Shown piece by piece: positions 43,487 through 58,649 of a stretch of DNA of 64,000 nucleotides. The DNA is from Candidatus Woesearchaeota archaeon (GTDB lineage Archaea > Nanobdellota > Nanobdellia > Woesearchaeales > 0-14-0-80-44-23): the NCBI GenBank assembly GCA_038874135.1, contig JAVZCZ010000001.1, positions 383,097 through 447,096 of the forward strand, written 5' to 3'. The notes beneath the pieces were generated by a model, which was given only the letters and a program-made list of their open reading frames with translations, was not told the DNA's origin and did no database searches. The stretch's first letter is position 1. The number at the start of each line of letters is the position of its first letter. The position numbers and the translations under genes are program-made.

Positions 43487-43924
43487 TCACTCTATCCTAA
43501 CCAATTTTTTCTGGTAATCGTAAGAGATTATCGCCTTGTTGCTGGAGTCAAATGTTATTTGAAAGTTCGTCATGCCTGCCTTTGTTAACGAATCGCTAAT
43601 CTGCTCCTTTCTGACTGAGCTGCAGTCCGCGGTTATAATGTAGCATATCGGCTCATTGCCTTGTTGAAGGCGGCCTTGCTTTCCGTTTTCGTTACAGAGA
43701 CGGGCGTGCTTCACAATCTCACTTAGGAATTCGCTGCATGTAACATTTATTTTTTGTATGTCCCCTACTGGCTGTTCTGAACCGCATTCACCTGTTAGTC
43801 TGCAGATGAACTTCTGCGCACTTAGGCTGTTCTTCGCAATTATGCCGATTACTACGAAGACGGTTATTGTTGCCAGAAATATCAAAAAAGCGTATTGTAT
43901 GGTCATATCTGCTCTTCTTTTCAT
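43487..43924 (-). CDS. pilin-like protein (class III signal-like N-terminus), Cys-containing
   Basis: MKRRA|DMTIQYAFLIFLATITVFVVIGIIA. The tail (...ICYIITADCS...AIISYDYQKKLVRIE) resembles the C-terminal module of the large paralogs. Confidence 0.5.
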   Translation of the reverse strand: MKRRADMTIQYAFLIFLATITVFVVIGIIAKNSLSAQKFICRLTGECGSEQPVGDIQKINVTCSEFLSEIVKHARLCNENGKQGRLQQGNEPICYIITADCSSVRKEQISDSLTKAGMTNFQITFDSSNKAIISYDYQKKLVRIE

Positions 43925-43926
43925 TA

Positions 43927-44337
43927 TTACACCCTGCTGAAAACATCTAGCAGTTCTCTTAACATTGGAAGTATGAAGAAGTAGATTACTGCTCCCGTTA
44001 TTATTAGAGCTATTAAAATCAGTCCATATTTTAAGAGCGGATTCAGCTGCTCATTCTTTTCAACTAACTCTTCCTTAGGCTTTTCAAGTTCTATTTTCAC
44101 TGTTACTTCACTTTTTTTCTCCTGAGGCTCTTCAACCTTTTCCTGCTCTCTCTTTTCTTTGAGCGAATTTTCCTGTCTCAACTTTATTGTTATATCATCT
44201 TGGGATAGTTTTTGAGCGTTTCCAAAATGGTCAATCTCGTATATTCTGGACAGTGCTGACTCTTTTGAGAACTCATACGCTTCACGAAGTGTTTCAAATT
44301 CCCTTCTGCCCTTTTCACTGGATACCACATATGTCAT
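43927..44337 (-). CDS. tail-anchored E/K-rich protein, hypothetical
   Basis: Soluble N-terminus, a charged repeat region, and a single C-terminal TM YGLILIALIITGAVIYFFIL. Confidence 0.45.
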   Translation of the reverse strand: MTYVVSSEKGRREFETLREAYEFSKESALSRIYEIDHFGNAQKLSQDDITIKLRQENSLKEKREQEKVEEPQEKKSEVTVKIELEKPKEELVEKNEQLNPLLKYGLILIALIITGAVIYFFILPMLRELLDVFSRV

Positions 44338-44338
44338 T

Positions 44339-46456
44339 CTAGGTCACTACAACCTGGCGTTTAGTTGAATCGTATTCAACAAGTATGTTTGTATTTGTAT
44401 TTATATCTTTTGTGAAATTTATGTTGTCCGAATCTCCGCAGCCGTACTCCGAATCTCCAATTATGTGACACCATTGTCTATCCATCAGAATTTTTGCAAT
44501 GTCCCTCTCAGTTACTGCCCTTATGAAGTTATATTCTCGCGGCACTCCCAGTTCTGAGCAGAAGAAACTTGTTTTCTCCTGCCCGTATCTTGACTTGCGC
44601 CAGCAGTCTGCAATTGCTGAAACTATCTCCTCTTTAACAGGATACTTCGTATAGCTGAGTTTAAGATCGTCTGCTATCAGCTGAGTTGGGCCTGCTGTGC
44701 TAATCTTAAATGTAAATGTACAGTAGTCAGATGAACAGCTTTTTTCAAGCTCTTTAATTTCATCTGTCAAAGAAACTGTTTTTGACTCAGCATTTAAGTT
44801 TGTAGCTGTCATTACATCTTTACCTTCAATAGACAAGGTTACCCCTTCTGCTTTTATGTCGTAGACGATTTTTAGGTGGCTAATGCTAATTGTGCCGTCC
44901 CTTCCAGAGGACACTTCTAAAGGTATTATGCAGTTGCCTTCCTCATCTGGAGAGCATTCTGAGAGAGCTCTCTGCAGGGAATTTACAAAACCCTGCCCTG
45001 AAACCTTCCACGGAGAATTCACATTGTTTAGCTCGTCTTGGCGGTAGGCAAATTGTACTCCTGAAATGGAAAGCCCTATCTGGTTTGGATAGTTTGAGAT
45101 AACCATCTGCTTAACTGCCTCTGCTAATGCTGCCTCATCCCTAAATCCAAAGATTTTCCCCCCTGTAGAGGAAGCCAGCCTTTTCATCATACTAATTATC
45201 TGCCTACAATTGTTAATCACAACCTCGTTACAGTTTGGCGCTTGAACATTTATGCAGCTATAGGGATGTGAAGGACAGCATCCATCATAACAGCCTGGCC
45301 CGCTTCCTATGCTGAAGCCTTCTGGAGTGGTGCTGTCATCGTCTCCATAAACAACATTAACAAATATATTGTTCTGCTGAGCCTTCTGTATTGCCCTGTC
45401 GATTACTTCTTCCTCGTTTCCACTCATAGATACTGGCGTGGGGTATTTAGGAGGCGCATCATTAGAGCAGGGGCTGAATACAACTGATTGATAAACAGCC
45501 CCGTTGGGGTCCGAGTCGCTTATGAGGATTTCAATCCTCTTCGCATCTGAGAGCCAAGCATCTTCACCTTCTATCTGCGAGGATAGATAGTAAGATGCTA
45601 CACCCCAAGCTTCAGACGGCTGGTCTAAACCTATAGTTGAGTATGAACAACCAGCTGAAGAAAAGGAAAATTGGCATGTATTCATTGGAAGGCCTGTTTC
45701 TCTGAGTTGGTCGTATGTTATTTTCAGGTTCTTCGCTGGAATGGGACAGTTTTTTGCCACATTGGTTTTTCCGCACGGGTCTCCAACGCCGATTGCGTAG
45801 ACTCTAACTCTGTACTCTTCTATGTGCATTGCTGACAAGATTTTTGAAATATTACTTACTATTGAGCATACTGCACTCCACTCGTTAGTCATGCTTCCTG
45901 AAATGTCTATTGCAAAAGCGATATCGGTCTTTGTTGGATAGTTGCTTCCGTAAAGCTCTATGGAAGCATTTTTTATTATTGCATATTTTGGAATTTTTAT
46001 TAAGGCCGTGTTGGTTCCCCCTCTCAATGGATAGGGTGGCAGAGTAATGTTTGTTTCTCCAGAAGCAAAGGTTCTGAGCACAATGTTGTGAGGGGCCCCT
46101 ATAACTATTGAAGCGTTTTGAAGAATTGCATCCCTGTCCACTGTTATCTGAAAGGTCCGTTCAAGACGAGAATTACTGAATCCTAAGATTTTAGTGCTGC
46201 TCCCGTCTGAAAACTCAGATGATATAATCTGTTCTGCCTTTATGATTTTGACATCGTGAGGCCCAACGCCTGCGCAGAAGCTGTCCATTCGCGTGTTGTA
46301 AAAACGGGGAACATACTTGTGTGCAAGTTTGCAGTAGAACTCCTTACCGCTCCTCATCTGAGCTCCAAGGGAAAGCATAAGGGCTATTGCAAGAATGGTT
46401 ATCACTATTGAGAATACTACATTTATTGCAAGCTCACCTCTTTTTTTTACAGACAT
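44339..46456 (-). CDS. large pilin-like protein with von Willebrand factor A domain (paralog A, 705 aa)
   Basis: Class III-like MSVKKRG|ELAINVVFSIVITILAIAL. MIDAS motif DIAFAIDISGSMT (vWA roughly nt 45107-45928). Shared motifs CSPDEEGNCIIPLEV and a C-terminal 4-Cys module. Confidence 0.65.
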   Translation of the reverse strand: MSVKKRGELAINVVFSIVITILAIALMLSLGAQMRSGKEFYCKLAHKYVPRFYNTRMDSFCAGVGPHDVKIIKAEQIISSEFSDGSSTKILGFSNSRLERTFQITVDRDAILQNASIVIGAPHNIVLRTFASGETNITLPPYPLRGGTNTALIKIPKYAIIKNASIELYGSNYPTKTDIAFAIDISGSMTNEWSAVCSIVSNISKILSAMHIEEYRVRVYAIGVGDPCGKTNVAKNCPIPAKNLKITYDQLRETGLPMNTCQFSFSSAGCSYSTIGLDQPSEAWGVASYYLSSQIEGEDAWLSDAKRIEILISDSDPNGAVYQSVVFSPCSNDAPPKYPTPVSMSGNEEEVIDRAIQKAQQNNIFVNVVYGDDDSTTPEGFSIGSGPGCYDGCCPSHPYSCINVQAPNCNEVVINNCRQIISMMKRLASSTGGKIFGFRDEAALAEAVKQMVISNYPNQIGLSISGVQFAYRQDELNNVNSPWKVSGQGFVNSLQRALSECSPDEEGNCIIPLEVSSGRDGTISISHLKIVYDIKAEGVTLSIEGKDVMTATNLNAESKTVSLTDEIKELEKSCSSDYCTFTFKISTAGPTQLIADDLKLSYTKYPVKEEIVSAIADCWRKSRYGQEKTSFFCSELGVPREYNFIRAVTERDIAKILMDRQWCHIIGDSEYGCGDSDNINFTKDINTNTNILVEYDSTKRQVVVT

Positions 46457-46461
46457 GTCAA

Positions 46462-48654
46462 TCAGCTCACAATTATTGCTCCTTCCTTTTCAGAGTATTC
46501 TATAAGTACATTTCTTCCCGGAATTATTTTCTGAATTCTCCATTTTAACTGGTCGTACCTTCCGCAGTTAAAATCTGAGTTTCCAAGTGTTTCGCAAAGC
46601 CCATTTTCTTTTAAAATTTTCGTGATTTTGTCTTCATCTACATCTTCAACATAGGTGCAAGTTGAAGGTATAGTGATCTCATAGCAGAGCAGGTCTGAGT
46701 TGCGCTCTCCAAATCTTGCTTTTTCCCAGCAAGCAAGCGAGTATGCTGCAATAACTTCAGAAACGCTGCACTGCCCATATTCTATTTCAATTCCTGAGAG
46801 CACAATCTCTCCAGCGTCCTGTGAAGCTGCTGAGATTGTTACTTCGCATTTGTCCTTTTTGCAATTAGCTGCCTGTGAAACCTGTTTGGTTATGTCCAAC
46901 TGTATTGCTGGAGCATATGGCTTCATCACTTCAAAGTTTCCCACATCTACTCCAAAGACGTTTATTAGCACTCCTCTTATAGGAAGTTGGTAGTTTATAC
47001 TTAGATTTTCAATTGAGATTATTGGCTCAGAATTGAATATCATAGCGCTTATCTTCAGGGGAATTATGCAATTTCCATCCTGATCTGGAATGCACCTTCT
47101 CAGCCAGGAGTTCAATTTTTCAGAACTAATATGTGCTGTCCTGCCACTTTTGAATGAGCCGCTGCTCTGCCAGTCTGGCTGTGCCGAATTGCACGAATAA
47201 AATTTTATCCATGAAGATTTTTTCAAGCGAGAAATTATGGCGTTAATCATGAAGTTTGTATCTCCAAACTCCGATCCGAGCTGTTCTTCAATATTTGGAG
47301 CGATGTAAATCACGCTGCCATTGCCGTATGAGAACTCTATAACTGCCTGTCCAGGTCTTCCATAGTTTCGGTCTGCACATTTTAACTTAAGGTCCTTGTC
47401 AAGAGGAGATGGATTAGTTGAGTTGTAAACGAGGTCCGCAAGGACTTTTACCTTGGAGTTTGAATAGTTTACCTCAACGCAAGGAGTGTTATCATATATC
47501 ACAGAGTACTGCTTGTTTGAGCTTACTCCGTATTGCGCTTCTGCCTGTGCGGAGAATGTTATTCTTTGGCTCTCTCCACACCTGCCTCCAAAACCTACAG
47601 TTTCCCTGCACGGAACTATTGATTTATCATTGCAATTTTTTGGAATTGTTGCGTTGCACTCAGTTTTGTAATCTGCCTCATCAGGACTATTGCCTTTTGA
47701 AGGAATAAGTTGGTCTTGCTTCTTAGCCTGTAAAAGCCCCGGGCAGTTCTGGTATGGAGTTATTCTTTTGAAGTATGGCGTGATTTCTTTTTCAGGAAGT
47801 TGAGATTCGCTGAAGAGTTCAACTAGAAGGTTTATTGCCCAGCCGGTTACCATCAGCGTGTTTCCTTCTGCTATCCAATCCTTTAAGTATTCCCTGTCAG
47901 CACTATTTCCGATGGTTGTATTAAGCCCGCTTCCCACTATGAGCACAGAATGTTTTGCGAGTGTCTCTTTCCAGTTTGGGTCTCCCTTCCAGCACTTACT
48001 CTCATCATATGAGATGAGATAATAGTAGAGATATTTTCTCACATCATCAAAAATTCCGGAGCCGTACTGCTGGCCGCACTTGTTTGAGTAGCCCGTGAAG
48101 ACAAGCACTTCTGAACTTTCACCTTCCTGTTTAGAGTAGAAGTCAAAAGAAGCGTTAAGAACGTGGGCGTCCTTGGGAAGTTTCAGAAATAGAGTTTGCT
48201 CAGCTTCTTTTGAGAAGTCCAAAACTTTTGATGTGCTTCCATCGCTCAGAGTATTAACCCTTCCGAGAGAATATCCGAATATTGAAATCTTTGCTCTAGT
48301 TATGTTTGTAGCTGGGACTAGAATGTGAGCGGTAGCAGTTAAGCCAGGGCCTACACTTAAAACTTTTCTTTCAGAACCATCTGAGAAGCTTCTAAGGATC
48401 ACCTTTTCCATTTTGATTGTGCTGTTTTGCAAGCTATCATCTTGTGAGCAATATGCTTCTTCAGCTGTTCCGGAACTGAGCGAGAACATCACTTTTAAGG
48501 GCGAAAGTATACTGCAGTAAACGGAGCGGGATAAATACGGAAACTTTGAAAAGATTAACAGGAGAAAAATTGAAACTGCAATTATTCCTACAAATAGTGT
48601 AAATGCAAGAGTTATTGAAAACTCTCCTTTCCTGCTCATTAGTTTTAGCTTCAT
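46462..48654 (-). CDS. large pilin-like protein (paralog B, 730 aa)
   Basis: MKLKLMSRKG|EFSITLAFTLFVGIIAV. Repeated FSDGS...LNAS modules, CIPDQDGNCIIPLKI, and the C-terminal module ACWEKARFGE...CGRYDQLKW...VLIEY. Confidence 0.6.
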   Translation of the reverse strand: MKLKLMSRKGEFSITLAFTLFVGIIAVSIFLLLIFSKFPYLSRSVYCSILSPLKVMFSLSSGTAEEAYCSQDDSLQNSTIKMEKVILRSFSDGSERKVLSVGPGLTATAHILVPATNITRAKISIFGYSLGRVNTLSDGSTSKVLDFSKEAEQTLFLKLPKDAHVLNASFDFYSKQEGESSEVLVFTGYSNKCGQQYGSGIFDDVRKYLYYYLISYDESKCWKGDPNWKETLAKHSVLIVGSGLNTTIGNSADREYLKDWIAEGNTLMVTGWAINLLVELFSESQLPEKEITPYFKRITPYQNCPGLLQAKKQDQLIPSKGNSPDEADYKTECNATIPKNCNDKSIVPCRETVGFGGRCGESQRITFSAQAEAQYGVSSNKQYSVIYDNTPCVEVNYSNSKVKVLADLVYNSTNPSPLDKDLKLKCADRNYGRPGQAVIEFSYGNGSVIYIAPNIEEQLGSEFGDTNFMINAIISRLKKSSWIKFYSCNSAQPDWQSSGSFKSGRTAHISSEKLNSWLRRCIPDQDGNCIIPLKISAMIFNSEPIISIENLSINYQLPIRGVLINVFGVDVGNFEVMKPYAPAIQLDITKQVSQAANCKKDKCEVTISAASQDAGEIVLSGIEIEYGQCSVSEVIAAYSLACWEKARFGERNSDLLCYEITIPSTCTYVEDVDEDKITKILKENGLCETLGNSDFNCGRYDQLKWRIQKIIPGRNVLIEYSEKEGAIIVS

Positions 48655-48655
48655 T

Positions 48656-49531
48656 TTAACTTATTCTTATCTTCTTTGAGTTGTTTAAAAACTCTATCAG
48701 GATTGAGCCCTGCGGATGTATTGAAGTTAAATTCCATTCTATGTCATCTGAATCACCACACTCGTAGTCCAAGTTAGAGATTGCCCCGCATAAACCGTTA
48801 TCACGGAGATATTTAGTAAGCGTTGACTCATTTATGTTAAGCGGCGGACAGTTCCTTATCAGGATTGCCGCGCACGGAATATTTTCAGAGTAGCTTCCGA
48901 AGTTTGCGCTCTCCCAACAAGAGATTGTTGAGGCAGCAATTGCTTCAAGGAGGGGGCAATCCTTATAAGTTAGGGAGAGATCTTTAATCCAAACCTTGCC
49001 ACTGCTCCTTACACTTACATTTAAAATGCACGGGTACGCCTTGCATTTTGAGGAGCATTCTGCTAAATTTTTAACAAGTGAACCAGGGCTAGTATAATAT
49101 TTTGAGGGAACTGCTCCTTCTATCTGCCAGTCAGCATTTTTAGAACCGCATATGTAAAATTCTGCACTTCCAGACTCTGCCCTTGCTGAAAAGGAAAACC
49201 CGGTGAGGGTAGAATTTATTGGCAGGATGAAGTAGAAGGTGCTTTCACCATTAGAAGTAAAAGTTGTTGAATTGTCCGCAAACCTCTTAACAAAAATCCT
49301 GCTAGGTTTTACTTCAATGAAGTGCAGCATTGAAAATTCCCTGCAATAATCGGAACTTTGCCTTATTCCAGAGGGGAGGAATGATGCAGAAGCCACATAA
49401 AAAAATGTTTTGCAGTAAACCTGTTTTGCAAATACGGGCATCTGAAATGAAAAGAAGGATATGAGCAACACGATTGCTAAAACTGCTGTCAATCCGCCAA
49501 AGATTGCACTTATAGTAATTTCAGCCCTCAT
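48656..49531 (-). CDS. pilin-like protein (paralog C, short form)
   Basis: Start set to the ATG at 49531, preceded by GAGGAGG and forming an ATGA overlap with the upstream stop. MRA|EITISAIFGGLTAVLAIVLL, and the same C-terminal module SCWESANFGS...CGDSDDIEW...ILIEF. Confidence 0.6.
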   Translation of the reverse strand: MRAEITISAIFGGLTAVLAIVLLISFFSFQMPVFAKQVYCKTFFYVASASFLPSGIRQSSDYCREFSMLHFIEVKPSRIFVKRFADNSTTFTSNGESTFYFILPINSTLTGFSFSARAESGSAEFYICGSKNADWQIEGAVPSKYYTSPGSLVKNLAECSSKCKAYPCILNVSVRSSGKVWIKDLSLTYKDCPLLEAIAASTISCWESANFGSYSENIPCAAILIRNCPPLNINESTLTKYLRDNGLCGAISNLDYECGDSDDIEWNLTSIHPQGSILIEFLNNSKKIRIS

Positions 49532-49878
49532 TCCATCCTCCTCACAAGGCACTTTGAGGAGCTGCTGTAGATCTTAAGAGTGTAGCTTCCAGGTGCCAAA
49601 CTGTGAAATCCCTGAAACTCAAAATTGGAAGAGCTGTTAAGAACCCCTTCAGTTATCTCTGCCGTTATAAGGAAGCAGTCCCTCTCTGCAGGACCCCTGC
49701 ACAATTCGCAAAGACGGCTTATCTTGTGGTATAGTTGGCTGGCACTTCCCGAGAAGTTTTGAAGTTCGTCCTCTCGCGTTGGCTTTGCACCTATCACTTT
49801 GAAAGCAAAAGCCATAAGCAGGCCCATCACTGCTACTGCCACTACTAGAATTCCAACCTTCAGGTAAGTATCTTCCAT
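49528..49878 (-). CDS. small N-terminally anchored protein, Cys-containing
   Basis: MEDTYLKVGILVVAVAVMGLLMAFAF, then CELCRGPAERDCFLITAE. AT-rich TATA-like sequence lies upstream. Confidence 0.5.
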   Translation of the reverse strand: MEDTYLKVGILVVAVAVMGLLMAFAFKVIGAKPTREDELQNFSGSASQLYHKISRLCELCRGPAERDCFLITAEITEGVLNSSSNFEFQGFHSLAPGSYTLKIYSSSSKCLVRRME

Positions 49879-49942
49879 AATGCCTTATTTGCCCTTTCAA
49901 TTTAAATTTATTTCTCAAATTTTGATGCTGGAAGCATTCGTG

Positions 49943-52078
49943 CTAGCCAGTGGCTGAAATTCCTGAAGCCACCAGCATTTTTAGGAAAGTTGAACCTATC
50001 ACGGTTACGAATACGTAGACTATAATTGCAATAAGCACATTCTTGGCTATCTCCGCATCTCTGGATATCTCATCAAAGCCGTTCTCAACGCCGTTTGCAA
50101 GCTGCGATAATAGGAACACTGCTTCTATGGTGTAGATGCCTACTAACACCTGAAATATTGGCGGGGGAGTCACCCGTGTGAAGTTTATAAATTCAGTAAA
50201 AAATCCAGTATCCTGAGAGCCCAATGCGCTGCCTGCTAGCTTCTGCATTACGAGTTCCAATCTTCCCAACATGTCATAAAGGGATTTAATAATTACAAGG
50301 GTCAATGAGCCTACGATTCCTGCTATGAACGGTGCTAGGAACTTTGCCTGCATCCTTACTGAGGTGACTGTCTCTTCCAACAAGTCGTATATGAGCTCTT
50401 TTATCTTCTTCACATTGTCAAGGTAGACTGCAATCTTCTGCATTATATTGTATATAACCTGAGAGCCCTTCCTGGCGCTTTCAGTAAATATCCACATTAT
50501 CTCTTTTAAGAGGGTGGACGGGTACTCTTTTATTATGCCCTCTTGAGGGTGAAAGACTGCCTGTCCAAATGTCAGCCCGAGTGTCCGCATCTTTTCAAGA
50601 ATCCTATTAAAAAGGTGAAATATCTGCCTCTTTTTTAAGTTCATAACCTGATAATTGTTTACGAAGTTTTCAACTGCGATCTCAACCGGAATATTCTCTG
50701 TAAACTGGTTTGCTATGCTATACAGAGAGGCGTTTAAATCTTCTTCAATTTCAATTATCTCGTCCCTAAGCTTTATCTTCTGAACGCTCCTTCCATAATA
50801 GAAGAGAAATATGCCAACAGCAATTCCAACGGGTATTGTCAAGGTCATAAACATAACGCTCGACTCGTATTCGTGAGCCAGGGCTGGAGGAGGCGAAGCG
50901 TTTGCCGGAAGCTTGCTGGCTTCCAGGAATACGGGAATTGTAGCAGTGAAAAGGTGAAAAAGCCCCGGGCTCATTATCAAGAGTGCAGCTAAAATGGCAA
51001 CTGGGAGGACTGGAACAAGGTAAGACTTCTTTCTAACCAGCAGTCGGTATTTTCCCTTCGGAGGAAGATTAGGATTTCCAGAGATGTCTGGTGCTGAGAA
51101 AGCTCCTGGCCTCTTTGCAAGTATCCTGTTGGAAAAGAAGTATATCAGGGAGGGCAGTATTACGATGTAGCCGAAAAAGAGGTAGGATATTTTAATACTT
51201 GAAGACATGAATACGCTTATGATTGGAAAAGCAATAAGTCCTATGAGTGGTAGCATTAAGCCGAAGGTGTTTATTATCATTATCGGATTCTTCAAGTCGT
51301 GAGCGTAGTATTTCATCTTTTCATAAGTGTCCTGGAGTAGAGTGGAAAGGGCCTTATCAAGTATTGCAGATTGGTGTTCCTTGTCCGGCTGGGTGGTTAC
51401 GCTTAGAAGTATCATAAACGACTTTACAAAGTCGGGATTCCTCTTGAGCCAGAGCTCCATATAAAGTTTGAAGCCGTCGTGAATTGAGGATATCTTTCCA
51501 CCATCTAAAAGCCAGAGTATTCTCTTGAAGTCTCTGCCGAGTGGTCCATTAAGATGCTCTGTGGCAAAGGCTATTGCGTTTTCCAGCACCGGATTCACGC
51601 GCATGTAAATTGTTATATAGAGGAGAGCTAGTAGTGATTCCTGTTGGGCTCTTATCTTGGTAATCTGACTTGAGAATGCTGGGTATGTGTAAGCTATATA
51701 AGCTAAGAACATTCCCGTGAAGATAAAGAAGAATGCCAAGTCAATCCAGCCCAGAATTATTAGAGGAAGTGCTGACATAATGCCGAGGAGCACTGTTAGG
51801 ATTGCAGCTGCTAGCACCTGCTTAGGTCTTATGTGGAGCCTTGCAATTTGGATATCCTCATACATTTCCGGTTGAGATTCATCTTTTACATCTATAAAAG
51901 AAAGAAGTTTTCCTGCAAAATCAGCATATTTTTCAAAAAAAGTGGGAAGTGCAGCCTCCTCTTGCTCTTCCCGAGCAAATGAGGAAAATTGACTGGAAAC
52001 AAATTCCGACTGCTGCCCCTGCCCGGAAGCCAGCCTCTTTTTAACTTCTGCTTCTATCTCTTCAATGCTTTTAGGCAT
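49943..52078 (-). CDS. FlaJ/TadC-like (T2SS-F family) platform protein, paralog 2, with no adjacent ATPase
   Basis: Aligns by eye with the 30778 ORF (FATEHLNGPLGRDFKRILWLLDGGKISSIHDGF vs FASEHLAPPLSIDIKKILWNVESGKYPSVKESL) and has the same TM/cytoplasmic-domain alternation. Confidence 0.6.
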   Translation of the reverse strand: MPKSIEEIEAEVKKRLASGQGQQSEFVSSQFSSFAREEQEEAALPTFFEKYADFAGKLLSFIDVKDESQPEMYEDIQIARLHIRPKQVLAAAILTVLLGIMSALPLIILGWIDLAFFFIFTGMFLAYIAYTYPAFSSQITKIRAQQESLLALLYITIYMRVNPVLENAIAFATEHLNGPLGRDFKRILWLLDGGKISSIHDGFKLYMELWLKRNPDFVKSFMILLSVTTQPDKEHQSAILDKALSTLLQDTYEKMKYYAHDLKNPIMIINTFGLMLPLIGLIAFPIISVFMSSSIKISYLFFGYIVILPSLIYFFSNRILAKRPGAFSAPDISGNPNLPPKGKYRLLVRKKSYLVPVLPVAILAALLIMSPGLFHLFTATIPVFLEASKLPANASPPPALAHEYESSVMFMTLTIPVGIAVGIFLFYYGRSVQKIKLRDEIIEIEEDLNASLYSIANQFTENIPVEIAVENFVNNYQVMNLKKRQIFHLFNRILEKMRTLGLTFGQAVFHPQEGIIKEYPSTLLKEIMWIFTESARKGSQVIYNIMQKIAVYLDNVKKIKELIYDLLEETVTSVRMQAKFLAPFIAGIVGSLTLVIIKSLYDMLGRLELVMQKLAGSALGSQDTGFFTEFINFTRVTPPPIFQVLVGIYTIEAVFLLSQLANGVENGFDEISRDAEIAKNVLIAIIVYVFVTVIGSTFLKMLVASGISATG

Positions 52079-52096
52079 AATACACCACTATGTTTT

Positions 52097-53899
52097 TCAA
52101 GATACTGAAGGTTGATCTGGGGGAGGTGGAGGTGGGTTAGGCGGATTGTATGGAGGACTTGGTGGCTCGGGTGTAGGATTTGGCTCGTCCTTGTTATGAA
52201 CAAGTATTCCTTCAGCATAGAAGTCATTCACGCTTTCTATGCGTTTGAGATTGTAGGTTCTTATTTTTGTAGGGCTGCACTCTAATGAGATTACCCTTTT
52301 CAAAATAATGTTTTTCCCATCAAAACTGAATGCATAATCCCCTCTTTCAAGAGGTAATACTTTGAGATTTGGCGTCTCCCCTTTTGAATTCTCAGGAGAG
52401 ATTGAAGCCCAGCCCTTTAGAGTGTATATTGGATGCTCGTCAGTAAGTCTTAAAAATGAGCCGTCTTCAAAGGATACGGTGCAAAGGTGGTCCCTATATG
52501 GAGATTCAAGCTCCAGCACCCTTGCTGGAACATGCTTTCCAGTTTTAAAATCATAGCCGAGCACCAGCTCTCCAACTCTGACATCTTCAATATTTTTTAA
52601 GCTTCCATCAGCCATTCTTATTCTAGTTCCAGCAGGAAAACAGGAGGAAGGCGTATCACCTGTTGGCTCACAATGTTCTGGGCAGTCGCATTCGGGCTCT
52701 GGCGGGTTCGTAGTTCTGGTGAGGAATACGTGCACTAAAAGGTTGAACCTCAAATTTTCAAAACCGCTTTCAGAGATGGGATGCTGATACTTTGTGTCAG
52801 TACAGGTTATATTCATTATAAAGTCTATATTGTGCCTCTCTCCATAACCGTAGGGGGAGAATGGGCAGGTTATCAGAGTGTTAGGTTCAAGCTGTGTTCC
52901 GAAAGGAATCTCAACTTGGGGCTGCTCTGGAGGGCTTGGGATGTTCTGAGGATTTTCACATTTTCCGTCAGATTTTTGCCCGCTCAAACAGTTCTGCTTA
53001 AGATCTGGATAAGGGCATCCTGAAGCTGGCCAGATAACTCCGCATCCTGCCGGGCAGTTTATAGCTGCGCTGCACAATATTTCGGTTTTTGCATAAAGGC
53101 ATGGAAGAGTGTAGGTACACTTTACATATGAATCAAATGAGTCTTGAAGATGCTTCAATGACGAATCTGCTATTTGTTTAACATATTCCTCATTTATAAC
53201 ATATGCTGGACATGCACTTGTTCCAACTCCGTAATAAGTCATAAGTTTATCACAGCTATATTGCGATACGATGTTCTGCCTAGCCCATTCCTCAATCTTC
53301 CTGTAAAGGTACCAGTAGCGCAGGGGATAAGCATATGACTTGAACGCATTCTGCTCCTGAACCTCTTCTCCAGAATCAACTTCCTTAACAACTGCTGGAA
53401 TTGTACCCCTTCCCTCAGCCAAGAAGCCTTCATCTGCGCCTGCGGAACCGTCCATCTCATAAAGGTCTGTATCTGAAACGAGTATTTCAATAGATGATAT
53501 GTCACCCGCATCTTCAATCTTAAATTTTCCAAGATCCTCTCCACGTATTGAAGCAAGATACTGGTTAGTGTAGATGATTGCAAACCGGCTAAGATTACTC
53601 TTTGCTTCCCAAAGTTTAGGCGGGATTGAAGAGGAGTAGCTTATCCAGTATGAGTTCTGAGCACCTGCTCCAGAGCTTGCGCTGTCATAGGATGCACGTA
53701 TAAGAGCGTCTCTGAAAGAGTGAAAGGAGTAAGTTCTCAGAATTTCAGAGTAGCTGTTCAGCTGAGATTTCTGCTCTTGAGAAGTTGTAAATTCAACTAC
53801 AGCCTTCCTATTCTGAAGATATACCAGGTAGAATATCAGAATTACAAGTGCCACGAAAAAGAGCAGCATAAATGTTGATGCGCGCCTATTGAACTTCAT
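52097..53899 (-). CDS. pilin-like protein with Cys-rich middle, C-terminal Hint domain and poly-Pro tail
   Basis: Start set to the ATG at 53899, preceded by GAGGTGA (the track starts at a TTG at 53920). MKFNRRA|STFMLLFFVALVILIF. Hint blocks as listed in the next feature. Confidence 0.65.
   Translation of the reverse strand: MKFNRRASTFMLLFFVALVILIFYLVYLQNRKAVVEFTTSQEQKSQLNSYSEILRTYSFHSFRDALIRASYDSASSGAGAQNSYWISYSSSIPPKLWEAKSNLSRFAIIYTNQYLASIRGEDLGKFKIEDAGDISSIEILVSDTDLYEMDGSAGADEGFLAEGRGTIPAVVKEVDSGEEVQEQNAFKSYAYPLRYWYLYRKIEEWARQNIVSQYSCDKLMTYYGVGTSACPAYVINEEYVKQIADSSLKHLQDSFDSYVKCTYTLPCLYAKTEILCSAAINCPAGCGVIWPASGCPYPDLKQNCLSGQKSDGKCENPQNIPSPPEQPQVEIPFGTQLEPNTLITCPFSPYGYGERHNIDFIMNITCTDTKYQHPISESGFENLRFNLLVHVFLTRTTNPPEPECDCPEHCEPTGDTPSSCFPAGTRIRMADGSLKNIEDVRVGELVLGYDFKTGKHVPARVLELESPYRDHLCTVSFEDGSFLRLTDEHPIYTLKGWASISPENSKGETPNLKVLPLERGDYAFSFDGKNIILKRVISLECSPTKIRTYNLKRIESVNDFYAEGILVHNKDEPNPTPEPPSPPYNPPNPPPPPPDQPSVS
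52193..52642 (-). other. Hint (Hedgehog/intein-like) autoprocessing domain within the 52097 ORF
   Basis: Starts CFPAGTRIRMADGSLKNIEDVRVGELVLG, has the block-B-like RLTDEHPIYT, and ends FYAEGILVHN followed by K. The next 31 residues are Pro-rich up to the stop. Confidence 0.65.
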
Positions 53900-53909
53900 A
53901 AAAATCACC

Positions 53910-54428
53910 TCAGCCTGCAATCACAAGCAGTGCACCCCTCTCGTAGCTTCCCGAAGAGCAGGGTCTTGGAAATCTGAAATCATAGGATACATATTCAGTG
54001 AATTCTGGAGTACCAGATTCGGAGATTAAAGAGGAGGTGAGAAAAAGCGGTTTAGAGCCCTGGCTGTCTGATTTTAGGATTAGAGCCCAAGCATTTTTCC
54101 CGTATGTGGAGTCAAGCATTGCTCGTAAAGATTGAATTATGTTTATCTGTCCATTCCCGTAGTTTGCAGTTTCCACTCCGTAACAGGAATAAACACCCAA
54201 AAGTTCTTCTATTGGGATTCCCAAAGAGTTTCCTGCTGCATCCTTGGCGGTTATGTATGGAAATGAAAATCCTGTGGAGGCAACTCCTGATACGCGCATA
54301 TCTCTAAGTATTGCTTCTGCCCTGTTAAGAACAGATGCAGAGGTCTGCATCCTCACAAAGATTGCAATCAGAACTATTGTTGCCACAAGAACTATTATGC
54401 CTACGAACTCTGAGGACTGCGCCCGCAT
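53910..54428 (-). CDS. small pilin-like protein
   Basis: MRAQSSEFVGIIVLVATIVLIAIFV: a short charged leader followed by a hydrophobic helix, as in archaeal type IV pilins. Confidence 0.55.
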   Translation of the reverse strand: MRAQSSEFVGIIVLVATIVLIAIFVRMQTSASVLNRAEAILRDMRVSGVASTGFSFPYITAKDAAGNSLGIPIEELLGVYSCYGVETANYGNGQINIIQSLRAMLDSTYGKNAWALILKSDSQGSKPLFLTSSLISESGTPEFTEYVSYDFRFPRPCSSGSYERGALLVIAG

Positions 54429-54477
54429 ATCAACCCCTTTTTTGTGAATTAAATTCTCTTTCGCATATTTAAAGTTT

Positions 54478-55212
54478 TCAGTATTTTACTCTTACTGAAT
54501 TTGAACTTTCATTATAAGAGATTAGCACAAGAGATTTTCCTTTGGGAATTGTGAAGTTTCCAACACTGCATTCAAACCTAGGAAAGAAAAGGTATTCCCC
54601 AACATAGAAAGTGTTTGTAAAGTTATCATACCTTATGTTATAGTCTGAAATAAGAATGTGCTGCATCCCCTCATGGCTCCTGCAAGCCTGTTTTATCTTG
54701 CCATAAAATGAGGGGATGCTGCCGATGTAAGCGGTAATGGATGCAAATCCGGGATTTATAGTTGGCACCTCCGAAGGGTATCTTATAGCGATAGGAAGTG
54801 CTATTGTTAAAGTATCCTCTGCAAACTGCGGCTCATTCAAAAGGCCTATGCGCCACTCCTTCCCCGTAAGACTATCTACAACTCTGAATGTGTAGAGAAA
54901 GTCATACTGCTCTACGCAGGATATGTCCTCGTTACCCCTGTTGTAGTAGTCCAGCTTTTGCTGGTATAATACCGCCTGAGACGCAGTGGTCCAGCTTCCC
55001 TCTTTCTCCTTATATGCGAAACAATCGCTGGCAATCATCGCCTTGAGAAATGAGGTTGCAAGAGCATAATATTCAGATGTAAACTTGGCTTTCTGAGAAG
55101 AGGTTCTACTTCCTAGCAAGGTCATTATTACAAACATTAAAAAAATAACCGTGAATATGGCGAATATTGACTTTATCGTAAGATCCTCAGAGCCCTTTTG
55201 TGAAATCCTCAT
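54478..55212 (-). CDS. pilin-like protein
   Basis: MRISQKG|SEDLTIKSIFAIFTVIFLMFVIMTLL. Its start forms a 4-nt ATGA overlap with the stop of the upstream gene (55209 ORF). Confidence 0.5.
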   Translation of the reverse strand: MRISQKGSEDLTIKSIFAIFTVIFLMFVIMTLLGSRTSSQKAKFTSEYYALATSFLKAMIASDCFAYKEKEGSWTTASQAVLYQQKLDYYNRGNEDISCVEQYDFLYTFRVVDSLTGKEWRIGLLNEPQFAEDTLTIALPIAIRYPSEVPTINPGFASITAYIGSIPSFYGKIKQACRSHEGMQHILISDYNIRYDNFTNTFYVGEYLFFPRFECSVGNFTIPKGKSLVLISYNESSNSVRVKY

Positions 55213-55982
55213 CTTTCACCATTCACCTTCGCTCTTATTATCAAAAAAGCCAACACTAAAATTATACAAATTGCTACTAACGCAGCAATGAGCAGCTTGG
55301 AAGAGTTATCCTCTCTTTTCTGAATAGTTTTAATACAATCGGGATCTTTGTTTGGAGCGCAGTCAGGATCACAGATGCCGTCCTTAACCATATCGCAATA
55401 GCCGTCCCTGCTTCCAGATTTGCAGTCCTGCGGACAGCTAAGATATGTTTCAGTAGGATCGCAGACTGAGTTACCACAGCCTGAAGGGGATATGTTGATA
55501 GGGTTGGTTTCAGTTGGAGTGCTTGTGCTGCAATCTGCTGGACAGCTTATTTCACTTTCATATTTCTCACAAATGCCGTTTACTCGGCAAAAATTAGAAG
55601 TTTTAAAAGAAAAAATTTCTACACCTGATTTAAAGATTTTTATAGTGTCCGCATTGGCAAAAAAAGGAACTTTTAGTTCAATCAGAGTATTATTTGAGCT
55701 GATAGATACTGGCGGATCACTCATTATATTAAAACTAACAAAAAAGGGAAGTGAATATAACTCTTTATCTTCAGAATACACTTTTAGGTAATATTTTGTA
55801 GGAGAGTCTGTTGGAATCGTTTTATACCCTTCAAGCACTTTAGCATATGTTAAGTTTATTTCTCCAGTATTCCAGAATAAAATCTGCATGTCGTAGATTT
55901 TTTCATATGCCAGAGTCATATCTATTGAAATAAGTAGAAATAACAAAACTGTTGCACTTATTATGAGATTTTTCATTTTCAT
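55209..55982 (-). CDS. secreted Cys-rich protein with C-terminal TM anchor
   Basis: Start set to the ATG at 55982 (TGATG overlap with the upstream stop). Sec-type signal MKMKNLIISATVLLFLLISIDMTLA, then CGNSVCDP...CPQDC...DGICDPDCAPNKDPDC, and a C-terminal anchor. Confidence 0.55.
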   Translation of the reverse strand: MKMKNLIISATVLLFLLISIDMTLAYEKIYDMQILFWNTGEINLTYAKVLEGYKTIPTDSPTKYYLKVYSEDKELYSLPFFVSFNIMSDPPVSISSNNTLIELKVPFFANADTIKIFKSGVEIFSFKTSNFCRVNGICEKYESEISCPADCSTSTPTETNPINISPSGCGNSVCDPTETYLSCPQDCKSGSRDGYCDMVKDGICDPDCAPNKDPDCIKTIQKREDNSSKLLIAALVAICIILVLAFLIIRAKVNGER

Positions 55983-58033
55983 CAGCCACAATATTGTTGT
56001 ATTATTCTACTTCTTAAATAAGTATAGCTTGTGGAAGTGAATGCATATCCTTCGCTGCATCCATAACGGCATGCATCCATAGAGCACATTATGCTATCCT
56101 TTTCTGGAACATTTGGACAGCAATAAAGCTCCTCTCCTTCTGGGACATAACAATTATCGTAGCAGTCCCTTCCGCCAACAGTATACCAACCGCTAGGGCA
56201 AGAACTGCACCTGCCTCCTCCATAACCTTCATCACAAAGTCCAAAGGTGTGTCCCATTTCGTGAGTGCACACATTAGTAATGCGAGTACCTGAAGATACG
56301 AGTGCAGGGTAGTTTAGGTAGGTATATCCGCCAATACAACTTTCTCCTTCATTATACACGCAGTCCCCTGCAACTACACCTATGATTCTATCATACTTTC
56401 CCGCGTACCCCCAGGAAGTTGCACATTGTTGTATTATGTTTAGCGCATTACCATTTCTTCTGTCAGTTTCCGATACTGGACAAATTTTAGTATCTTCAAA
56501 TAAGTAGCACACTCTATCTGGACATTCCTTGAATGGACTTAGCGAAACCCAAGCGTCTCTCGCTGCCTTGGCAACATTTCCAAAGTTGCTTATAGGATCT
56601 ATTTTTATAAATAACATAGTAAACGAGCAGCTGTTTTTGCATGTATTTCCATCCCAGCTTTTTCCATTTGGACAGCAAGCCTTGTCATTACTATTCTTAG
56701 GATTTGACATGCATTTCAAGCCAGAGTTGCACTCTGCATCGCACTCACACCTTTGCCCTTCTGCTTTTCCTCCTGGTGTGATGCAGTATAAGCCGTTCTG
56801 CTTTTGGCACTTTTTTGTTCCGGAGGGACAGCATCCGCTGCTTTCTGCTCCTACACAGTTTGGACAGCATTCAGCAGTGCACTTGCAGTCATTAGGAGAG
56901 TTTTGGCAGTTTTCGCTGAATGGCTCACTAGTGTTGCAGATGCCATCATTTTTGTAGTTTGTGCACGCCCCGTTTTTGTAGTAGCTGTCTGGGGGGCAGC
57001 ATCTAAATGTGCCAAATCTTGTATCGCAGATTAGTTTTTCTCTATCTTGTGAGCATTGGCAGTCCTGAGTGCACTGCTGCCCCTTTGCTGATAGCTTCGT
57101 CTTTTCAATGCAGCCTCTTTCATCTAGGAAGTTTTGAATTGCTGGGCAGTCCGCCTTGCAGATCTGTGAATCTGAGCATTTGCAGTCCTGAAAGAGGGGG
57201 TAGTCTAAGCAGCTTTCTCCCCTGTTTGGCTCGCAAATGCCATTCCCCTTGTGAGGGCAGTCTGCATCATACTGGGTGCAGTCTGGATCGCAAACTCCAT
57301 TGGTGCCGAGGCAGTCTGGATCACAGATGCCATCCTTAATATTGTTAGTTGCTGGGTCACAGATTCCGTCATTTTCATAGTCTACGCAGTCAATATCATA
57401 AACGCCCTTGTCAAAGTTTGTATAGCATGCTGGAATGCAGATCTTGTCTGCATCTGCAGGGTCTATTCTACCATTCTTGTTGGTGTCCAAGCAGTAGGGG
57501 TTGCATACTGATTTTTCCATTGGACTCTTGCAAGCTGGATCGCAGATTCCGAGGGCAATACAGGCAGCATCGCACTTGTCATCTTCAAGGTTGCACTCCT
57601 CAGCTGCATTCGCCCTCGTTATTATGATGTAGTTATCTTTTTTGTAGATGTGTATGATTCCTGAGTTTTCAATATTTGATGGTATTACTACTGAGTTTCC
57701 TGGAAAGAAGTATGTTGTGCTAGTGAGGTTGTTGATTGCAAAATGAGCCAGAATCCTGTTCTGGCTAATGTTTATGGTATAGATTAGTGGGTCTTTGAGC
57801 GTTATTACGTATTCAACATTTGCGGGAGTGGATGCTGCTTTTTCTATTGCACTCTTTAAATCCTCAACTACTGAGATTGTGTAATCAATCTCAACCTGCT
57901 TCGCCTGTTGGAGAGCCAGGTTTCTTAGGACGCCTACTATTGCAAGAGAGATGAATATCATTCCTATTATAAGGATTGAATTTGTTAAAGTGGCGCCTCT
58001 TCTTCTGGTCCGGTTATTCAAAAATATTTTCAC
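55982..58033 (-). CDS. pilin-like protein with Cys-rich (DGICDPxC) repeat region and C-terminal HExxH metalloprotease-like domain
   Basis: N-terminus ...NNRTRRRG|ATLTNSILIIGMIFISLAIVGVL (GTG/TTG start). Cys-rich region about nt 56624-57601. HEMGHTFGLCDE at nt 56249-56263 and following. Confidence 0.6.
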   Translation of the reverse strand: MKIFLNNRTRRRGATLTNSILIIGMIFISLAIVGVLRNLALQQAKQVEIDYTISVVEDLKSAIEKAASTPANVEYVITLKDPLIYTINISQNRILAHFAINNLTSTTYFFPGNSVVIPSNIENSGIIHIYKKDNYIIITRANAAEECNLEDDKCDAACIALGICDPACKSPMEKSVCNPYCLDTNKNGRIDPADADKICIPACYTNFDKGVYDIDCVDYENDGICDPATNNIKDGICDPDCLGTNGVCDPDCTQYDADCPHKGNGICEPNRGESCLDYPLFQDCKCSDSQICKADCPAIQNFLDERGCIEKTKLSAKGQQCTQDCQCSQDREKLICDTRFGTFRCCPPDSYYKNGACTNYKNDGICNTSEPFSENCQNSPNDCKCTAECCPNCVGAESSGCCPSGTKKCQKQNGLYCITPGGKAEGQRCECDAECNSGLKCMSNPKNSNDKACCPNGKSWDGNTCKNSCSFTMLFIKIDPISNFGNVAKAARDAWVSLSPFKECPDRVCYLFEDTKICPVSETDRRNGNALNIIQQCATSWGYAGKYDRIIGVVAGDCVYNEGESCIGGYTYLNYPALVSSGTRITNVCTHEMGHTFGLCDEGYGGGRCSSCPSGWYTVGGRDCYDNCYVPEGEELYCCPNVPEKDSIMCSMDACRYGCSEGYAFTSTSYTYLRSRIIQQYCG

Positions 58034-58115
58034 CTCTTTTTAAATCCCGTATTTAGAAAAAGATATTTATAAATCCTTCTTTATTGTAAGATTAAATGGA
58101 ATGAAAAATAAGAAA

Positions 58116-58649
58116 TTATCTCTCTGTAAATCCAAACCTTACCTTCCAGTTCATCTGGCTTTCAGTGTCTAATCCGCACCCGTCATCTAAGCCCCTAGCA
58201 GCCAATTGGTCATATGTTGCTAGGTTGTTGTTGTCTGGATCTAAGAGTGTGTTCTTACAGGTTTCTCCAGTATATTTTCCGTTCTGACATTTATCCACTA
58301 ACACGAAGCAAGGCACCTTGTCCTCACAGAACTGCCACTTTCCATAAGTCACTTTATCCTTCAAATTTTGATTGCCGTTCCAATCAACCTGTATTGTTCT
58401 CTTGCAGAACTCAATTAGTGTGTTGTCATCATTTATTGCTTCGCATAACCCTTGACAGGTCTGTATTGCCTTATCAATTGTCGCCTTTGTAAAGTACTCT
58501 GTTGAAGCACCTTCCATCTTACCAGAGCTCTTCTCAGTAAACTTGAAGAATAGGCTAAGCACGACTAGCGAAATTATGAGTAGTACGAAAAGCCCGAATA
58601 TCATTTGAAGCTCCTTTTCTCCCTTTCTTGAAAAGAACACTTGTATCAC
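58116..58649 (-). CDS. small Cys-containing pilin-like protein, first gene of the block
   Basis: With the GTG start: MIQVFFSRKG|EKELQMIFGLFVLLIISLVVLSLFF. An alternative ATG at 58604 is preceded by AAGGAG. TATA-like tttatatattg lies about 30-40 nt upstream of 58649. Confidence 0.5.
   Translation of the reverse strand: MIQVFFSRKGEKELQMIFGLFVLLIISLVVLSLFFKFTEKSSGKMEGASTEYFTKATIDKAIQTCQGLCEAINDDNTLIEFCKRTIQVDWNGNQNLKDKVTYGKWQFCEDKVPCFVLVDKCQNGKYTGETCKNTLLDPDNNNLATYDQLAARGLDDGCGLDTESQMNWKVRFGFTER

Follow-up and report, generated by a model that had tools for sequence, protein, structure and literature searches.

A stretch of 64,000 nucleotides from a Candidatus Woesearchaeota archaeon (contig JAVZCZ010000001.1, positions 383,097 to 447,096; hereafter the window) encodes a pilin-like surface protein at 52097..53920 on the reverse (-) strand, which also carries all other genes and features named below unless stated otherwise. 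The protein comprises a predicted prepilin-like N-terminal anchor, a Cys-rich ectodomain, a 150-aa domain of the Hint (Hedgehog/intein) superfamily and a short Pro-rich tail. Judged from its sequence and a structure model, the 150-aa domain is most likely an intact Hint of the type A bacterial intein-like (BIL) kind, harbored by a prepilin-like surface protein of a member of the Woesearchaeota (DPANN), a very small symbiotic archaeon. This report describes the domain, its relatives and the processing that may be expected of it, and follows up an earlier interpretation made from the DNA alone (hereafter the sequence-only reading).

The host protein

The host gene is listed as an open reading frame (ORF) of 607 aa starting at TTG, and the residue numbers used here (Cys427, Asn576, Lys577) follow that ORF; the NCBI entry for the same gene, 'hypothetical protein QXT20_03400, Candidatus Woesearchaeota archaeon', has 600 aa. 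The true start is almost certainly the ATG at 53899 (residue M8 when counted from the TTG), giving a 600-aa product, because a Shine-Dalgarno-like GAGGTGA lies 5 nt upstream of it and because the orthologues and the NCBI model point to the same start. The listed TTG start (53899..53920) runs 11 nt into the upstream gene. Two short ORFs on the forward (+) strand over the same region (52112..52285 and 52362..52556) were disregarded as unsupported.

The N-terminal segment (53813..53899, MKFNRRA/STFMLLFFVALVILIFYLVYLQ), delimited by motif scan, is predicted to combine a class III (prepilin-like) signal with a membrane anchor; it is kept in all orthologues (NRRASTFM or NKRASTFM) and is the sole membrane or pilin anchor of the protein. 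It is followed by the Cys-rich ectodomain (N-extein; 52643..53812), which ends in ...CDCPEHCEPTGDTPSS and is 57–64% identical to the orthologues P0002–P0006. The ectodomain has no match in Pfam, NCBIfam or PDB, the PHROGs search gave one weak match, over the Hint domain only, and a full-length AlphaFold2 model of the protein (6-sequence alignment; predicted local distance difference test, pLDDT, 39) is too poor to classify this region. Past the Hint domain the protein closes with the Pro-rich tail (C-extein; 52100..52192), 31 aa long (KDEPNPTPEPPSPPYNPPNPPPPPPDQPSVS) and followed by the stop codon, a host feature that is also present in orthologues devoid of Hint.

A complete, BIL-like Hint domain

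The Hint domain occupies 52193..52642, from Cys427 (52640..52642) to Asn576 (52193..52195), reads CFPAGTRIRM...FYAEGILVHN and has no endonuclease insert. Its predicted N-terminal scissile junction is Ser426/Cys427 (52640..52645), with Cys427 as the block A nucleophile, near-invariant in relatives; block B contains the TxxH motif T493-D-E-H496 (52433..52444), the Thr and His of which are conserved in relatives; and block G ends in His575-Asn576 (52193..52198), where C-terminal cleavage by Asn cyclization is predicted. The residue that follows the terminal Asn (+1) is Lys577 (52190..52192), also conserved in the family. On translation, the boundaries, Cys start, TDEH block, His-Asn end, +1 Lys and 31-aa Pro-rich tail given in the sequence-only reading proved exact to the base.

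The proposal that this is a genuine Hint, catalytically complete by its residues, is borne out by profile, single-sequence and fold searches, which agree with one another. As a single sequence the domain scores 30.1 bits with the Pfam Hint model (cut-off 29.7); the Pfam models PT-HINT, Vint and Intein_splicing align over their full length, all below threshold, and an NCBIfam search of the host protein returned intein N-terminal matches. Using phmmer, the single sequence matches 8w20 (9.8e-8) and Tetrahymena 6y75/6tmm (5.8e-7, full length) in PDB, and among 1.84 billion representative proteins it finds 5825 at E<=1e-3, 1456 at E<=1e-10 and 149 at E<=1e-30. The match of the 150-aa domain to Hint is far beyond chance.

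A family profile (A2) was built from 36 domains found by phmmer and run against PDB. It ranks the Tetrahymena BIL2 structures first (6y75/6tmm, 6e-23), then the BIL 2lwy (1.5e-18) and 8w20 (7.6e-18), with canonical inteins appearing only at E-values of at least 2e-9. The AlphaFold2 model of the Hint domain, based on the A2 alignment, has a pLDDT of 97.8; Foldseek likewise places BIL2 first (TM-score 0.86, root-mean-square deviation 1.8–1.9 Å) and 2lwy next (TM-score 0.77/0.84), followed by mini-inteins, Hedgehog (1at0) reaching a TM-score of 0.73, with a probability of 1.00 for BILs, inteins and Hedgehog and TM-scores of 0.64–0.86 overall. The resemblance to BILs put forward in the earlier interpretation is thus seen in the profile ranking as well as in the fold search. 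No second copy of the Hint occurs within the 64-kb window.

All 36 sampled Hints of the family also match the Pfam AXH module of ataxin-1 and HBP1 over their N-terminal ~110 residues (best E 1.3e-18), and the A2 profile matches the AXH structures of ataxin-1 and HBP1 at ~1e-11 to 1e-12; this BIL subfamily resembles AXH to an unusual degree.

Presence and absence of Hint among orthologues

The whole-protein search gave six orthologue clusters, four of which lack the Hint. P0002 (611 aa) contains it, with intact catalytic residues and Lys at +1; the sequence-only reading had named a nucleophile at this position in an orthologue as grounds for calling the domain an ordinary intein, and P0002 does not have one. 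P0003–P0006 (446–452 aa, 59–63% identity) have no Hint, and in the alignment their N-domain continues directly into the Pro-rich tail. The window protein deprived of Cys427..Asn576 aligns to the Hint-less form with zero gaps (CEPTGDTPSS/KDEPNPTPEPP versus CEPGETPPGN/NVEPTPPPDNP), and when P0002 and P0003 are aligned by codon a 165-codon indel coincides with the Hint to within one residue. The Hint is therefore an indel in the linker that joins ectodomain and Pro-rich tail. Its description as a C-terminal domain holds in that it lies near the C-terminus, and does not hold in the strict sense, since the insertion precedes the Pro-rich tail of the host.

The Hint-less locus L001 (660-333-247-181-452-711 aa) and the window (683-260-244-172-607-711 aa) have the same gene order, and their proteins are therefore true orthologues. 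As four syntenic orthologue clusters are devoid of the Hint, maturation in the host family does not require it and the domain is dispensable there, so that the suggestion of an unusual route of pilin maturation was abandoned. P0002 and P0003 share 85% nucleotide identity in the N-domain and 49% in the tail; the 3' end is therefore a variable region.

P0002 is 87.7% identical to the Hint-less P0003 and 64% to the window protein, and the Hints of P0002 and of the window protein are 53% identical. By nearest-neighbor ranking these two Hints are not mutual closest relatives (ranks 8 and 16), with margins of 2–8 percentage points that are too small to bear weight. A bootstrapped neighbor-joining tree of the host proteins pairs P0002 with P0003 at 54% and the window protein with P0002 at 46%, and a scheme of independent gains or losses drawn from pairwise identities was dropped on account of these values. 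With regard to signs of a recent insertion, the GC content (0.404 in the Hint versus 0.437 in the N-domain) and the absence of flanking repeats around the Hint are both uninformative.

The wider Hint family

Conservation was counted over 245 full-length domains from the best 156 proteins. Cys1 occurs in 244 of them, the block B Thr in 238, the block B His in all 245 and the terminal His-Asn in 226; Cys1 and His-Asn are also present in P0002. The +1 position is occupied by Lys in 171 domains (70%, versus a Lys background of 5.1%), by Arg in 15 and by Ser, Cys or Thr in 19, the +2 position by Gly in 94 (38%) and the -1 position by Ser in 105 and by Cys in 50. With Lys at +1 in the window protein, in P0002 and in 70% of the close relatives, the view that the domain is not a canonical intein stands. 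After 47 of the domains, 40 or fewer residues remain, and in nine cases (9/245 domains; e.g., P0010 and P0011) the protein ends in HNK.

One scan of species-representative genomes, with a 5-sequence alignment, detected the family in Planctomycetia, many Candidate Phyla Radiation (CPR)/Patescibacteria, Riflebacteria, Bacteroidota, Clostridia and Gammaproteobacteria; the archaeal taxa found in the scan of species-representative genomes for the same family are Thermoplasmatales, Nanoarchaeota and Woesearchaeota. A Pfam census of 80 host proteins revealed no domain, whether of toxin, pilin or other type, that regularly accompanies the Hint. The hosts that were inspected have signal peptides, Cys-rich or Thr/Pro-rich regions, or C-terminal anchors, and an N-terminal hydrophobic run is present in about 45% of the family hosts (69/154).

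Cys480 (52481..52483) and Cys548 (52277..52279), which delimit the span 52277..52483 and correspond to Hint positions Cys54 and Cys122, are a candidate disulfide pair on the basis of co-variation: both residues are Cys in 44 members of the family, one only in 16 and neither in 185, as raw counts that ignore phylogeny. This co-occurrence suggests a disulfide and an extracytoplasmic location, and the Cys480-Cys548 pair probably forms such a bond, characteristic of a subclade located outside the cytoplasm.

Tandem arrays of 2–7 Hint copies, arranged head-to-tail, are frequent among close relatives (P0047, P0048, P0050, P0055, P0059, P0060, and P0066). Their spacers (n = 91) have a median length of 4 aa, 58 being of 10 aa or less, and typically read K, KG, KC, KGG, KGA or KGS; P0047 packs 7 Hint copies into 1285 aa and P0048 (Nanoarchaeota MBU0757110.1) has 4 copies. 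Arrays of predicted self-cleaving domains with 'exteins' of 1–3 residues are puzzling. A Pro-rich, collagen-like tail with a conserved Cys motif at its end is shared by P0047, P0059 and P0066 after their arrays (...NLCAEECDRLP, ...NLCEEECDKLP and ...CDEECQVFP), and Pro-rich segments C-terminal to the Hint recur across the family, the window protein included. In P0090 a PEF-CTERM-like sorting signal or anchor, ...DIPEFSATGIIIVIVAVIAGALGFFVYKKRK, comes after the Hint; with a C-terminal anchor of this type, N-terminal cleavage would free the ectodomain from the cell.

Weaker matches of the whole-protein search, of 610–690 aa, combine a papain-family domain (Peptidase_C1) with intein-type Hint matches (P0017, P0020, P0023, P0025, P0026, P0033, P0038, P0039, P0042 and P0043). 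Some of these ten proteins also match the LAGLIDADG-type PF14528, and the Hint blocks lie ~250 aa apart, as in full-size inteins. As few inteins in peptidases are, to our knowledge, on record, the Peptidase_C1 proteins looked like an unusual intein host.

Genomic context

The host gene is part of a block of pilin-like genes (43487..58649), most of them with class III-like N-termini. The motif was found in 9 of the 13 ORFs of the block versus 5 of the 45 elsewhere, two of the latter being FtsX-type permeases, with a loose pattern that consists of a short basic segment, [KR][GAS] and a hydrophobic helix. The N-terminus of the host protein (MKFNRRA/STFMLLFF...) fits this pattern, as do eight further ORFs of the block; a Ser at +1 of the class III site is atypical of the FlaFind pattern. 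The nearest candidate filament-assembly ATPase, a T2SSE protein of the type II/IV secretion family (PF00437, 4.4e-15), is encoded ~17 kb away at 32991..35327, and no T2SSF or peptidase A24 match was obtained in the part of the window's ORFs that was scanned. Directly downstream of the host gene lies a gene for a 711-aa polytopic membrane protein (49943..52078), syntenic in the orthologous loci, which may be a component of the filament platform. Given the enrichment of the motif in the block and the T2SSE ATPase, the prepilin-like context that had been proposed is plausible, as is, judging from the N-terminal motif, the prepilin-like nature of the host protein itself.

Two other proteins of the block have features of their own. 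The 683-aa protein at 55982..58033 shows a textbook class III N-terminus (RRRG/ATLTNSIL...), long Cys-rich repeats and, in its C-terminal region, an HExxH motif (THEMGHTFGL) with weak matches to Reprolysin_5, M64 and M6; it may be a pilin-like zinc metalloprotease. The 705-aa pilin-like protein at 44339..46456 has no Pfam match at E<=0.01 and contains FAIDISGSM, a DxSxS motif resembling a metal ion-dependent adhesion site (MIDAS), which suggests a von Willebrand A domain.

Proposed processing and alternative explanations

From the features described above we infer the occurrence, the place and the product ratio of processing as follows. It is fairly likely that the Hint removes itself by means of a thioester at Ser426/Cys427 and cyclization of Asn576, with cleavage dominant and some splicing. 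The C-terminal part of the protein would be exported and the Hint would fold in the extracellular space, where Cys427 would attack the carbonyl of Ser426 (N-S acyl shift) to form the thioester and His575-Asn576 would give rise to a succinimide, cutting the Asn576/Lys577 bond. By analogy with characterized type A BILs, which lack a +1 Cys, Ser or Thr, the main outcome would be uncoupled N- and C-terminal cleavage; in a minor outcome, splicing, the free amine of the Lys577 tail would attack the thioester. In both outcomes the Hint would be gone and the ectodomain would stay behind on its N-terminal anchor, the tail being either lost or joined to it; Hint-less orthologues are synthesized in this form from the start. 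The sequence-only reading had envisaged autocatalytic release of the ectodomain; as the only anchor is N-terminal, cleavage at Ser426/Cys427 would instead shed the Hint together with the tail and leave the ectodomain attached.

Several points weigh against self-removal as outlined here. The single-sequence Pfam Hint score barely exceeds its threshold (30.1 versus 29.7) and that of PT-HINT (PF07591) stays below it (22.6 bits versus 27.7); an extracellular Cys427 is open to oxidation; the host tree (bootstrap 54% versus 46%) does not separate gain from loss; and there is no homing endonuclease that would account for the insertion. Furthermore, plain cleavage or aminolysis does not account for the conservation of Lys at +1, even in proteins that end in HNK, and its retention at a terminal HNK points to a role outside the proposed mechanism.

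The conserved Lys is what speaks for amine-directed acyl transfer, in which the Ser426 thioester would be resolved by a lysine epsilon-amine into an isopeptide product, the acceptor being either Lys577 itself, in cis, or a lysine of an adjacent pilin subunit or of the host-cell surface, and the Hint would serve as a single-use ligase that cross-links or attaches the adhesin. Lys is found at +1 in 70% of the relatives against a 5% background, with Arg in a further 6%, and is kept even as the final residue of the protein; in addition, isopeptide formation and conjugation of the N-extein are reported for BIL2, the closest solved relative (PMC8616854). In BIL2, however, the nucleophilic lysine belongs to the ubl5 extein, and the source does not identify it as the +1 residue. 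Moreover, the Arg found at +1 in 15 domains is not acylatable, which suggests a charge or structural role of the +1 residue, and the Hint-less orthologues function without any such ligation, so that we consider this transfer rather unlikely in the window protein. A broader version, argued from analogy, takes the Hint of the whole +1-Lys subfamily for a single-turnover ligase and not a self-removing passenger, and would have the Ser426 thioester passed to a lysine amine to build an isopeptide-linked filament or a covalent attachment between symbiont and host; it too seems improbable.

The option that the ectodomain is transferred to a lipid, sterol or glycan nucleophile, as by Hog domains, draws on the fold common to Hedgehog (1at0, TM-score 0.73), on the near-C-terminal position with only a short tail, and on the 47 of 245 relatives with 40 or fewer residues after the domain (e.g., Nanoarchaeota L021, ending in LVHNKL). 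Yet the window domain retains the His-Asn that Hog domains do not need, has no sterol-recognition extension or other adduct-recognition region, its tail being host sequence common to the Hint-less orthologues, and is much nearer to BILs than to Hog in both sequence and structure; the Hog-type assignment considered in the sequence-only reading was not retained and transfer of this kind is highly unlikely. It is very doubtful that the domain has lost its activity and persists as a relic, or that it serves only in structure or adhesion without self-processing: no catalytic residue is missing from either the window protein or P0002, whose Hints share only 53% identity, and these residues are near-invariant across the 245 related domains, against which can be set the dispensability of the Hint in the orthologues and a probably extracellular location with possible oxidation of the thiol. 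Least of all do we expect an ordinary mobile intein (class 1) by which the tail would be spliced back on, or release of a C-terminal toxin by a pretoxin HINT, both of which are extremely improbable and were already ruled out by the sequence (+1 Lys; no toxin domain). Cys1 and His-Asn are indeed present, the pattern among orthologues resembles intein-plus and intein-minus alleles, and PT-HINT matches weakly. An intein is nonetheless contradicted by Lys in place of Cys, Ser or Thr at +1, by the lack of an endonuclease domain (150 aa, continuous with mini-Hint models) and by the site, a low-complexity Pro-rich linker and not a conserved site; a pretoxin is contradicted by the mere 31 Pro-rich residues downstream, shared with the Hint-less orthologues, by the lack of a toxin domain and of an immunity-like gene, and by the conserved 711-aa membrane protein as the next gene.

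Biological relevance

With the present observations, the range of BIL-type self-processing domains comes to include pilin-like proteins on the surface of DPANN archaea, which are presumed to attach to their host cells by surface appendages. The syntenic locus provides a natural pair of alleles, Hint-plus and Hint-minus. Since the Hint is dispensable for the host gene, its immediate biological consequence is probably small. For the family, the retention of catalytic residues, the conserved +1 Lys and the tandem arrays suggest a function beyond simple self-removal. The family, with its many members in both Bacteria and Archaea, is almost entirely uncharacterized, and its +1-Lys members with tandem arrays may merit a separate study. 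If amine-directed ligation were to occur, it would represent a novel way of building covalent assemblies at the cell surface and would supply compact tools for protein ligation, and a ligase of this kind would be an archaeal counterpart of the sortase-built or thioester-domain adhesins of Gram-positive pili.

Comparison with known systems

Pretoxin HINT domains (PF07591) of polymorphic toxins, reportedly described by Zhang et al. in 2012, are autoproteolytic Hints near the C-terminus of secreted proteins, as is predicted for the window domain, and the PF07591 alignment is full-length; the solved structure 8w20, related to pretoxin HINT, is matched by the A2 profile (7.6e-18). They differ in that no toxin domain lies downstream here and the PF07591 score is under the Pfam threshold, and 8w20 has Asn at +1. 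The Hog domain of Hedgehog (1at0) shares the superfamily and the near-C-terminal place, and its N-S acyl shift at Cys1 gives a transferable thioester. Hog has a sterol-recognition region and no block G His-Asn, whereas the window domain shows the reverse, and the structural match is weaker (TM-score 0.73).

The best solved match by sequence and structure is BIL2 of Tetrahymena thermophila BUBL1 (6y75, 6tmm); it shares Cys1 and the C-terminal Asn, two residues that were replaced in the construct used for crystallization. According to a summary by the authors of the BIL2 structures, BIL2 forms an isopeptide bond between a Lys epsilon-NH2 and the C-terminus of the N-extein and conjugates the N-extein to other proteins, the ubiquitin-like domain upstream of BIL2 being the conjugated one (PMC8616854). 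Unlike the window Hint, to which it is only about 23% identical in sequence, BIL2 is flanked by ubiquitin-like domains in a polyubiquitin-like locus instead of a Cys-rich ectodomain and a Pro-rich tail.

Type A BIL domains are said to have been described by Amitai et al. in 2003 and Dassa et al. in 2004. They end in His-Asn like inteins and have no +1 nucleophile (PMC4031507), they sit in hypervariable regions of non-conserved proteins (PMC7765530), and in their processing cleavage is dominant, with some splicing as the freed amine of the C-fragment attacks the thioester (PMC4031507, PMC7664689, PMC7765530). At the level of sequence, the window domain displays every property by which type A BILs are recognized, namely the His575-Asn576 end, Lys and not Cys, Ser or Thr at +1, a site in a variable region and greater proximity to BILs than to inteins or Hog, in addition to the Hint fold (AlphaFold2/Foldseek), block A Cys427 and block B TxxH of the HINT superfamily. 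The Clostridium thermocellum BIL 2lwy has in common with it the mini-Hint fold, the N-terminal Cys, TxxH and His-Asn, and the A2 profile match covers its full length; type A BILs in general also share the lack of a +1 Cys, Ser or Thr and of an endonuclease, as well as their placement within variable stretches of secreted or surface proteins that are not conserved. They differ from the present case in the host, which is archaeal (DPANN), and in the host protein, which is prepilin-like, as well as in two features of the subfamily, strong conservation of Lys at +1 (and of Gly at +2) and the frequent occurrence of tandem arrays, neither of which was found described in the BIL literature searched. 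Although a Woesearchaeota metagenome-assembled genome is not the bacterial host that the name of the BILs implies, the subfamily was also detected in Nanoarchaeota, Thermoplasmatales and many bacterial phyla, and this mismatch therefore concerns the name and not the mechanism. What is new is the host protein, while the Hint module itself is known and very widespread and does not constitute a new kind of system.

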